DNA from: Conchiformibius kuhniae DSM 17694
GTDB lineage: Bacteria > Pseudomonadota > Gammaproteobacteria > Burkholderiales > Neisseriaceae
Direction of reading: 5' to 3'
DNA: 32,000 bases
Assembly (NCBI RefSeq): GCF_000428785.1
Contig: NZ_AUAP01000020.1
Span: 1-32,000, forward strand
Below the pieces are notes generated by a model. The model saw only the letters and a program-made list of their open reading frames with translations, made no database searches and had not been told where the DNA came from. Shown in pieces: positions 3,044 through 3,200 of this stretch; position 1 is the stretch's first letter; every line of letters starts with the position of its first letter. The position numbers and the translations under genes were made by a program.

Positions 3044-3074
3044 GGAGATTCTCCTTATATACAGCCTACCGATG

Positions 3075-3200
3075 GCGGCTCTGATGATAGTCAATCTTGA
3101 TAAAGGATAAAGCCGCACGTTACATCTTGCCGACAGCTTGATAGCTCAGGCGAGTCCGCTAACTATGCGGCTTAATTCGTGTTTGTGTCCAAACCCGAAT
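3075..3200 (-). ncRNA. Candidate bridge (guide) RNA in the recombinase leader
   Basis: Hand fold of the minus-strand transcript. There is a 5' hairpin (3175-3200). An 8-bp stem (3110-3117 / 3166-3173) plus a 4-bp GTTA/TAAC extension encloses a 12/13-nt internal loop capped by AGCT-TGAT-AGCT. The loop strands match the insertion flanks: 3123-3132 is the reverse complement of 2035-2044, and 3148-3154 is identical to 10833-10839. 3083-3091 is identical to prophage end 2041-2049. No expression data or covariance-model search is available. Confidence 0.4.

Follow-up and report, generated by a model that had tools for sequence, protein, structure and literature searches.

Recombinases of the IS110 family use bridge RNAs (PMC11208160), and for one of these elements, the insertion sequence (IS) IS621, the rules are that the 5' strand of an RNA loop forms base pairs to the DNA's bottom strand, the 3' strand pairs with the top strand, and the core takes part in all four pairings (PMC11208160); handshake guides have also been defined for IS621 (PMC13626964). 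An IS110 recombinase and its bridge RNA can also move many kilobases, as described in a report that used matches of the left and right target guides to the flanks as evidence (bioRxiv 10.64898/2026.08.14.744561). Filamentous phages of the Nf type, according to PMC7058167 (citing Kawai 2005 and Meyer 2016), bring their own IS110-type enzyme for integration, which takes place at repeats that contain a CT motif. In this article, we discuss a prophage of this type in a 32,000-nucleotide stretch of Conchiformibius kuhniae DSM 17694 (contig NZ_AUAP01000020.1, positions 1 to 32,000 of the forward strand; hereafter the window), and in particular the leader of its IS110-family recombinase gene. Judging from the sequence comparisons given here, we consider it likely, with a probability of about 0.88, that a bridge RNA of the IS110 subgroup, working with the recombinase (2081-3043), is encoded in this leader (3046-3202, minus strand), and the whole 8.8-kb filamentous phage appears to have been inserted by RNA-guided recombination. 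An initial annotation of this DNA, made from the letters alone, had presented such integration as new for phages of the Nf and meningococcal disease-associated (MDA) type, and that needs trimming: IS110-type integration of Nf phages at CT-motif repeats, bridge RNAs of IS110 elements and large IS110 cargo were already known, and what appears to be new is the Nf-type filamentous phage as donor and its guidance by RNA. No description of a bridge RNA in an inovirus or an Nf/MDA phage, or of dRS3 targeting by one, was found in full-text searches of open-access papers; those retrieved attribute targeting to the integrase and make no mention of a guide RNA.

The donor, its enzyme, the leader and the two junctions, written with half-sites termed left and right target (LT, RT) and left and right donor (LD, RD), lie as follows:

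2042-10832, minus strand: Nf-type filamentous prophage, the proposed donor; 8.8 kb, every gene on the minus strand
2081-3043, minus strand: IS110-family recombinase (DEDD RuvC-like plus Tnp; PF01548 and PF02371), 320 aa, TTG start with AAGGAG before it
3046-3202, minus strand: predicted bridge RNA, directly upstream of the recombinase coding sequence (CDS)
2035-2049, minus strand: right-half junction (LD-core-RT), which reads ACTATCAT-CT-TGCCG on the top strand; the core occupies 2040-2041
10820-10839, minus strand: left-half junction (LT-core-RD), which reads CTCGC-CT-TATATGATAGCCC on the top strand; the core occupies 10833-10834
1975-2041 (left half) and 10833-10875 (right half), no strand assigned: interrupted Correia-like miniature inverted-repeat transposable element (MITE) carrying the target, ~110 bp when reconstructed

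The recombinase is 100% identical to a Conchiformibius kuhniae protein and shows full-length homology to two bridge recombinases of solved structure, those of ISCro4 (9t56, E 7.6e-51) and IS621 (8wt6, E 2.7e-47); D7, E55, D96, D99, S237 and S240, which we take to be the catalytic residues, are invariant across 20 homologues. Only 39 bp follow its stop codon, the structured leader lies upstream, and in NCBI the name 'IS110 family RNA-guided transposase' is already attached to some of these phage proteins. The prophage, whose locus maps to CP091521.2, holds the complete Nf/MDA-type gene set, comprising a Rep_trans initiator, Phage_Coat_B, a TspB-like adsorption protein (Neisseria_TspB), a Zot-like assembly ATPase and, as the last gene, the IS110-type transposase, together with DUF2523, and no other integrase, whether tyrosine or serine, was called among its genes.

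On the plus strand the junctions read CGGCA-AG-ATGATAGT (2035-2049) and GGGCTATCATATA-AG-GCGAG (10820-10839), so that in recombinase orientation the reconstructed target is CTCGC-CT-TGCCG and the reconstructed junction of the circular phage (attP) is ACTATCAT-CT-TATATGATAGCCC, the predicted junction also being written ACTATCAT-CT-TATATGATAG. CT stands at both prophage boundaries, which gives the core the layout seen in IS110 elements, and it recurs in every locus examined. The target is the centre of the MITE, whose terminal inverted repeats TATAGTTGAAATGATTTATTTT and TATAGTTAAAATTCTTTATTTT are 19/22 identical and start with TATAG, and whose interior is similar to the Neisseria Correia element; it is not the dRS3 repeat (ATTCCCRC-CT-RCGCGG). 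Beyond chance, no further copies of the unoccupied target (attB) sequence or of the MITE were found within the window.

Folded as minus-strand RNA, the leader reaches a minimum free energy (MFE) of -78.6 kcal/mol (z = -3.8; 0/200 shuffles fold as well), and its parts, including the left and right target guides (LTG, RTG) and the left and right donor guides (LDG, RDG), are these:

3175-3200, minus strand: 5' stem-loop (AUUCGGGUUUGGACACAAACACGAAU) of the MFE fold; in helix 1, 6/8 pairs show changes on both sides in a 17-leader alignment
3110-3173, minus strand: target-binding stem-loop, with outer stem 3160-3173 / 3110-3122, internal loop and inner hairpin 3135-3146
3148-3154, minus strand: LTG, RNA CUCGCCU, the same as top-strand LT (CTCGC) plus core CT; pairs with the bottom strand, 7/7 to 10833-10839
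3126-3132, minus strand: RTG, RNA CGGCAAG, complement of top-strand core CT plus RT (TGCCG), 7/7
3123-3125, minus strand: probable handshake guide, RNA AUG, following the RTG; complement of the last 3 nt of LD (CAT)
3046-3097, minus strand: donor-binding stem-loop, with basal stem AGAUU (3093-3097) / AAUCU (3046-3050), internal loop and apical hairpin 3063-3080
3083-3091, minus strand: LDG, RNA ACUAUCAUC, the same as top-strand LD (ACTATCAT) plus the first core base, 9/9 to 2041-2049
3054-3060, minus strand: RDG, RNA AUAUAAG, complement of core CT plus RD (TATAT), 7/7 to 10828-10834

Read from its 5' stem-loop (3200-3175) onwards, the RNA continues as [AAGCCGCAUAGUUA] GCGGA-CUCGCCU-G [AGCU AUCA AGCU] GU-CGGCAAG-AUG [UAACGUGCGGCUU] and, after a linker, as [AGAUU] G-ACUAUCAUC-AG [AGCCGCC AUC GGUAGGCU] GU-AUAUAAG-GAG [AAUCU] CC UUG. 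The donor loop addresses the phage's own joined ends (LD-core-RD) in the way that the target loop addresses the target, with 9/9 and 7/7 matches; the RDG overlaps the ribosome-binding site (RBS) AAGGAG (3051-3056), and the G at 3053 next to it could pair with the last LT base. By analogy with IS621, which carries AU at the same position beside its own RTG, the AUG that follows the RTG is a probable handshake guide that would, once the top strands have been exchanged, pair with the LD-RT product.

Much of this had already been seen in the letters. The stem arms AAGCCGCA (3110-3117), GTTA (3119-3122), AGCT (3135-3138 and 3143-3146), TAAC (3160-3163) and TGCGGCTT (3166-3173) are in place, their interrupted stem, internal loop and cap are reproduced by minus-strand RNA folding, and a 5' hairpin is found at 3175-3200 as proposed; likewise, CATCTTGCCG (3123-3132) and CGGCAAGATG (2035-2044) are reverse complements of each other, AGGCGAG (3148-3154) is the same as 10833-10839, and GATGATAGT (3083-3091) is the same as 2041-2049. 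Two of the proposals had to be recast, in that the 10/10 junction match is real and is better divided into an RTG of 7 nt and a handshake guide of 3 nt than taken as a 10-nt target guide, and in that the donor side, rightly placed at 3083-3091 for the LDG, had missed the RDG at 3054-3060 and the second stem-loop at 3046-3097.

Short matches clustered in this way could be due to chance, or could have been left behind when the phage end was duplicated into the leader, and in favor of the latter the LD and LDG regions are alike beyond the guide, both having GATTGAC...ACTATCATC. However, the four guide strings expected of a bridge RNA find longest matches of 7, 7, 9 and 7 in the 157-nt leader (sum 30), and of the dinucleotide shuffles (21.1 +/- 1.9) only 4/20000 reached 30, in agreement with the earlier claim that such matches are unlikely by chance; the test is conservative because it ignores loop-strand position, inclusion of the core and polarity. 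Moreover, the pattern is repeated with different sequences in >15 independent elements, and half-sites derived from the host cannot stem from duplication of a phage end, such that we give this explanation next to no credence.

The comparative evidence comes from a scan with an alignment as query, a single-protein query having matched nothing in the contig scan, and this covered one genome per species and yielded 15 Neisseriaceae loci among its 80 matches; to these were added circular inovirus genomes from saliva, the closest metagenomic relative (L087) and prophages of Wielerella bovis and Kingella kingae. Seventeen leaders, belonging to recombinases 37-73% identical to that of the window, align to one three-hairpin architecture in which 92.6% of cells are standard pairs and 27/32 pairs show compensatory changes, whereas shuffled or slid controls are 28-47% paired. 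The outer stem of the target loop is 96.8% paired, with compensatory changes in 13/13 pairs, the inner stem covaries in 3/3 pairs, and the apical helix of the donor loop is 97% paired with 3/4 pairs covarying. GAUUG, the donor-loop base, is near-invariant.

Now considering the guides themselves, the exact RTG 7-mer (the complement of CT and 5 nt of host flank) is present in 12/14 cognate leaders, always 81-106 nt before the start codon, vs 4/176 non-cognate pairs, and 0/20000 permuted RTG-RT pairings reach the observed sum. The RT targets TTTTC, TTTCC, TTTCG, TTTTA, TTGTG, ACGAA, ACTT, TTTGT, TTGCA and TGCCG each find their own complement at this fixed position of the cognate leader, and the two exceptions are one U-G wobble against a dRS3 copy and one homopolymer error in a metagenome-assembled genome. 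The latter (L042) has extra homopolymer bases, its RTG showing A7 although A5 is what its relatives and its own flank point to, and its recombinase frame is broken; these irregularities are probably assembly errors rather than biology. The LTG tracks LT in 7 loci (CTCGC-CT, AAACGTC-C, ACGAC-C, ACGGC-C, GAAAC-C), with 19/20000 permutations doing as well, and the two target-guide permutation tests bear out the proposal that the loop strands covary with the flanks of each insertion in related Neisseriaceae elements. On the donor side, the LDG covaries with LD in 16 loci (ATATCATC, ATACCATC, ATATAATC, CTATCATC, AGTAGTATC, ACACTATC; 0/20000 permutations as good) and follows the further phage ends ACAGTATC and TACTATCT. 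In the circular inovirus genomes attP (LD-CT-RD) is directly visible, ~135-190 nt past the stop codon, or within ~90 nt in the distant L096-L098. For the RDG, UAAG goes with RD TA.. and CAAG with RD TG.. among the inoviruses and IS621; RD hardly varies within the close set, which leaves the RDG/RD permutation without power. The left ends of the Neisseria prophages were located via the L003 LT match, blastn and the TTATAT pattern, and an exact search for the RDG-predicted RD in the Neisseria loci gave no match because the RDG pairing has a mismatch or discontinuity there.

Two comparisons show what this means for single elements. L087, which comes from a different sample and whose enzyme is 73% identical, shares its target guides with the window and also sits in an identical target sequence, so identical target loops go here with an identical target rather than with unrelated ones. 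The leader of the gonococcal or N. lactamica type (L010/L008) encodes UCCCGC ... CGCGUAG, the two halves of the Nf1 dRS3 target ATTCCCRC-CT-RCGCGG, with a single mismatch to the actual flank that is a U-G wobble (L010 1990-2040, 3192-3215). Taken together, the comparative evidence supports the three parts of the original proposal, a bridge RNA, the centre of a Correia-like MITE as its target and a whole filamentous phage as its donor.

Commensal Neisseria prophages (L002 3196-3236; L005 2440-2464; L006 2655-2679; L013 3281-3305; L088 2026-2051) sit exactly where copies of DNA-uptake sequences end; TTCAGACGAC-CT complements AGGTCGTCTGAA and TTCAGACGGC-CT complements AGGCCGTCTGAA, and the Wielerella insertion lies 2 nt after AGGCAGCCTGAA. 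The LTG changes between ACGACC and ACGGCC in step with the DNA-uptake-sequence dialect. In L004 (2805, 3043) and L088 (2051, 2343) there are two copies of the phage left end (TTATATATTGC...), separated by 240-290 bp, which suggests tandem or abortive insertions or a partial duplication of the left junction. Also, a second LD motif is found 45-64 nt downstream of attP in L097 (2464-2472, ACAGTATCT, with the full CT core) and in L098 (2611-2618, ACAGTATC, with the first core base only), and it may offer an alternative donor site or have a regulatory role.

The same data bear on the reading in which the leader is a 5' untranslated region that sequesters the RBS, or a set of double-stranded binding sites for the recombinase, with the protein picking its target by repeat structure, as was assumed for dRS3 before 2024. 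The location of the RBS inside the RDG strand, the donor-loop base beside the start codon and the presence of GATTGAC in leader and right end alike would all suit it. However, it leaves unexplained why the host flanks of both sides recur in each element's own leader, in opposite strand senses and at fixed loop positions, and why the stems change in a compensatory manner, and IS621 too has AAGG in its RDG region directly before the ATG; we therefore consider this reading very improbable. A role as untranslated region alone and targeting by protein alone were both rejected on the covariation evidence, as was chance, the last also by the shuffle test.

Rfam, scanned at E<=10 for the leader region and at gathering thresholds for the whole window, gave no match, which carries no weight because Rfam is without a model for the bridge-RNA class, version 15 also missing the genuine IS621 bridge RNA. 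A covariance model (R1) was built from 16 phage leaders instead; it scores 132.9 bits on the window, spanning 3046-3202, and finds strong matches in 3 distant inoviruses (E 2.5e-10 to 6e-6) whose recombinases are 30-37% identical. Weak matches (E 0.003-0.8), all of them immediately upstream of the recombinase, occur in 8 non-phage IS110 loci, and in the IS621 locus the best match, itself a weak one, is the experimentally defined bridge RNA, guide on guide. The eight weakly matching loci are L016, L017, L018, L020, L036, L050, L051 and L053 (Pantoea, Rhodocyclaceae, Gallionellaceae and others), where the matches are full-length and end ~25-75 nt before the recombinase start, which suggests one RNA family across this recombinase clade. 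The Thermus phage Zuza8, which carries an IS110-type gene, has no R1 match at E<=1; its RNA, if any, is too divergent for R1.

Covariation fits an RNA and a single-stranded DNA of the same sense equally, and the guide might thus be a 'bridge DNA' folded from the packaged (+) strand, a thought encouraged by the fact that all phage genes and the leader lie on one strand and that inoviruses package the sense (+) strand. Against this, the homologous enzymes of IS621 and ISCro4 bind RNA (PMC11208160, PMC13626964), the non-phage IS110 relatives have the same leader, and the donor loop addresses both strands of attP, which requires a double-stranded form, by which time transcripts are available; we regard a DNA guide as extremely unlikely, and we infer that the leader is produced as RNA, that the enzyme binds it and that recombination requires it.

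The phage ends hold a further feature, a putative promoter whose boxes lie at opposite ends of the prophage:

2055-2060, minus strand: -35 box TTGACA, in the phage right end
10825-10830, minus strand: -10 box TATGAT, in RD at the phage left end

TTGACA-N17-TATGAT, a sigma-70 arrangement, is joined only in the circular form, across the CT core, where it faces the Rep gene and the entire co-oriented phage operon, and an equivalent promoter is intact in the circular inovirus genomes (L083-L086, L096-L098) and in IS621. The motif GATTGAC (GATTGACTA in K. kingae, L089) occurs at the donor-loop base and again in the -35 region of the right end (window 3090-3096 vs 2056-2062), such that the right end looks like the 5' half of the donor loop with a 4-6-nt insertion, and the two may have a common origin. 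The identity of GTCAATC at these two places, already recorded in the initial annotation as a match between leader and prophage end, holds, and it carries meaning only in part, the leader copy being the donor-loop base and 2055-2060 the -35 box. In the Neisseria leaders L001-L005 and L013, a hairpin resembling a terminator (AAACCCGCAAAC...GUUUGCGGGUUUUU) lies ~150-200 nt ahead of the start codon; GGGUUUUU belongs both to this hairpin and to the bridge RNA's 5' stem-loop, and the two structures may therefore be mutually exclusive.

Several observations weigh against a bridge RNA at this locus and have to be set beside those in its favor. R1 scores the IS621 bridge RNA at no more than 11.8 bits (E 0.05 in 3.4 kb), a weak match. 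Within the donor loop, covariation of the RDG rests on few sequences, with nothing inside the close Neisseriaceae set, the basal helix shows little covariation (2/4 pairs never vary, 91% of cells paired), and the invariant AAGG might be kept as an RBS alone. Furthermore, the second core position is A rather than U in the LTG of most Neisseria leaders and in the LDG here. As for expression, the junction promoter lies ~7.6 kb of phage genes upstream of the RNA, whereas it abuts the RNA in IS621, and a promoter scan near the leader found only a 9/12 match, inside the RNA, and no credible local sigma-70 promoter, so that the RNA is possibly produced by read-through and processing, or from an unrecognised promoter.

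If the bridge RNA reading is right, the following sequence of events can be proposed. The RNA would fold, by analogy with IS621, into its 5', target-binding and donor-binding stem-loops, the target loop would select the Correia-like repeat centre CTCGC-CT-TGCCG, and in the donor loop ACUAUCAUC and AUAUAAG would pair with attP, ACTATCAT-CT-TATAT, which would exist only in the circular double-stranded replicative form. With the bridge RNA bound to a recombinase tetramer, strands would be exchanged at the CT core and the whole phage inserted, and the AUG after the RTG would probably stabilise the exchanged top strand in the role of handshake guide. Integration would also leave the -35 box (2055-2060) and the -10 box (10825-10830) at opposite ends of the prophage, and expression of the phage operon should drop; provided that the junction promoter is active, the phage genes would thus be expressed strongly from the circular form and weakly from the prophage, and the same may apply to read-through into the RNA and recombinase.

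On balance, we favor a wider view in which Nf-type inoviruses, including the clade of the MDA phage, would be natural RNA-programmed viruses, with the site of lysogeny written in an evolvable loop that each lineage has retuned to an abundant host repeat (dRS3, DNA-uptake-sequence dialects or Correia-like MITEs), and with the same site doubling as a promoter that is split on integration, thereby setting both place and on/off state. If true, this would provide a testable mechanism for the 20-year-old observation that the filamentous phages of Neisseria, including MDA, are found at particular repeats with an unusual transposase, as well as a natural case of a guide RNA integrating an entire virus. 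The target loop would have been reprogrammed many times in nature, following host-specific repeats, and the related bridge recombinases, with a 7-nt RTG and a natural cargo of ~8 kb, would be candidate tools for genome insertion. The split junction promoter, in turn, suggests a simple switch that couples the state of integration to phage gene expression.

Just beyond the recombinase end of the prophage are two more IS110-family genes (window 1-204 and beyond; L081 12840-13840, 14304-15305): a disrupted gene of 225 + 110 aa, which enters the window start, and an intact gene of 333 aa. A tRNA scan of the window gave no genes.

How, then, does the locus compare with what has been described? It is most like IS621 (Durrant 2024, PMC11208160; Hiraizumi 2024 and 2026, PMC13626964), with which it shares a DEDD plus Tnp enzyme, an RNA directly upstream of the CDS that ends at the RBS and start codon, a 5' stem-loop and after it a pair of stem-loops with internal loops, guide polarity, the CT core and AG-AU after the RTG, as well as similar LD ((A)CAGTAT in IS621, ACTATCAT in the window) and RD (TGTAT and TATAT) and a -35 box in the right end with a -10 box in the left end, across the core. 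The phage right end of L002 (TTGACAGGCCAATATATCATCT) is also similar to that of IS621 (TTGCAGGCCATAACAGTATCT). The locus differs in that the window element is an 8.8-kb virus rather than a 1.3-kb IS, in that its RTG has 7 nt vs 4-6 nt, and in that the similarity between the RNA sequences is low (11.8 bits). Compact IS110 elements of ~1.2-1.5 kb hold the RNA and recombinase only, whereas here 8.8 kb carry a full inovirus gene set, and the expanded IS110 elements of bioRxiv 10.64898/2026.08.14.744561 have mainly resistance and plasmid-derived cargo, with filamentous phages, prophages and Neisseria unmentioned. In contrast to such cargo-bearing elements, the cargo of the window is a complete self-replicating virus whose junction doubles as its promoter.

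The seekRNA elements of the IS1111 group belong to the same enzyme family and likewise choose their targets by RNA. Their seekRNA reportedly lies downstream of the recombinase, and the elements reportedly have subterminal inverted repeats, whereas the RNA of the window is upstream of the recombinase and only 39 bp follow the stop codon. Phages of the CTXphi type, which depend on XerCD and dif, are similarly filamentous phages integrated into a chromosome; they rely on host tyrosine recombinases at the dif site, in contrast to the phage of the window with its own DEDD recombinase and a target in the centre of a MITE. Finally, the Nf1/MDA-type prophages of Neisseria (Kawai 2005; Bille 2005, PMC2212043; PMC7058167) share with this one the Rep, coat B, TspB, Zot and terminal IS110-type transposase genes, and also the insertion into a host repeat at a CT motif, and what sets the prophage of the window apart from them is its host, Conchiformibius kuhniae, and its target, the centre of a Correia-like MITE and not dRS3.

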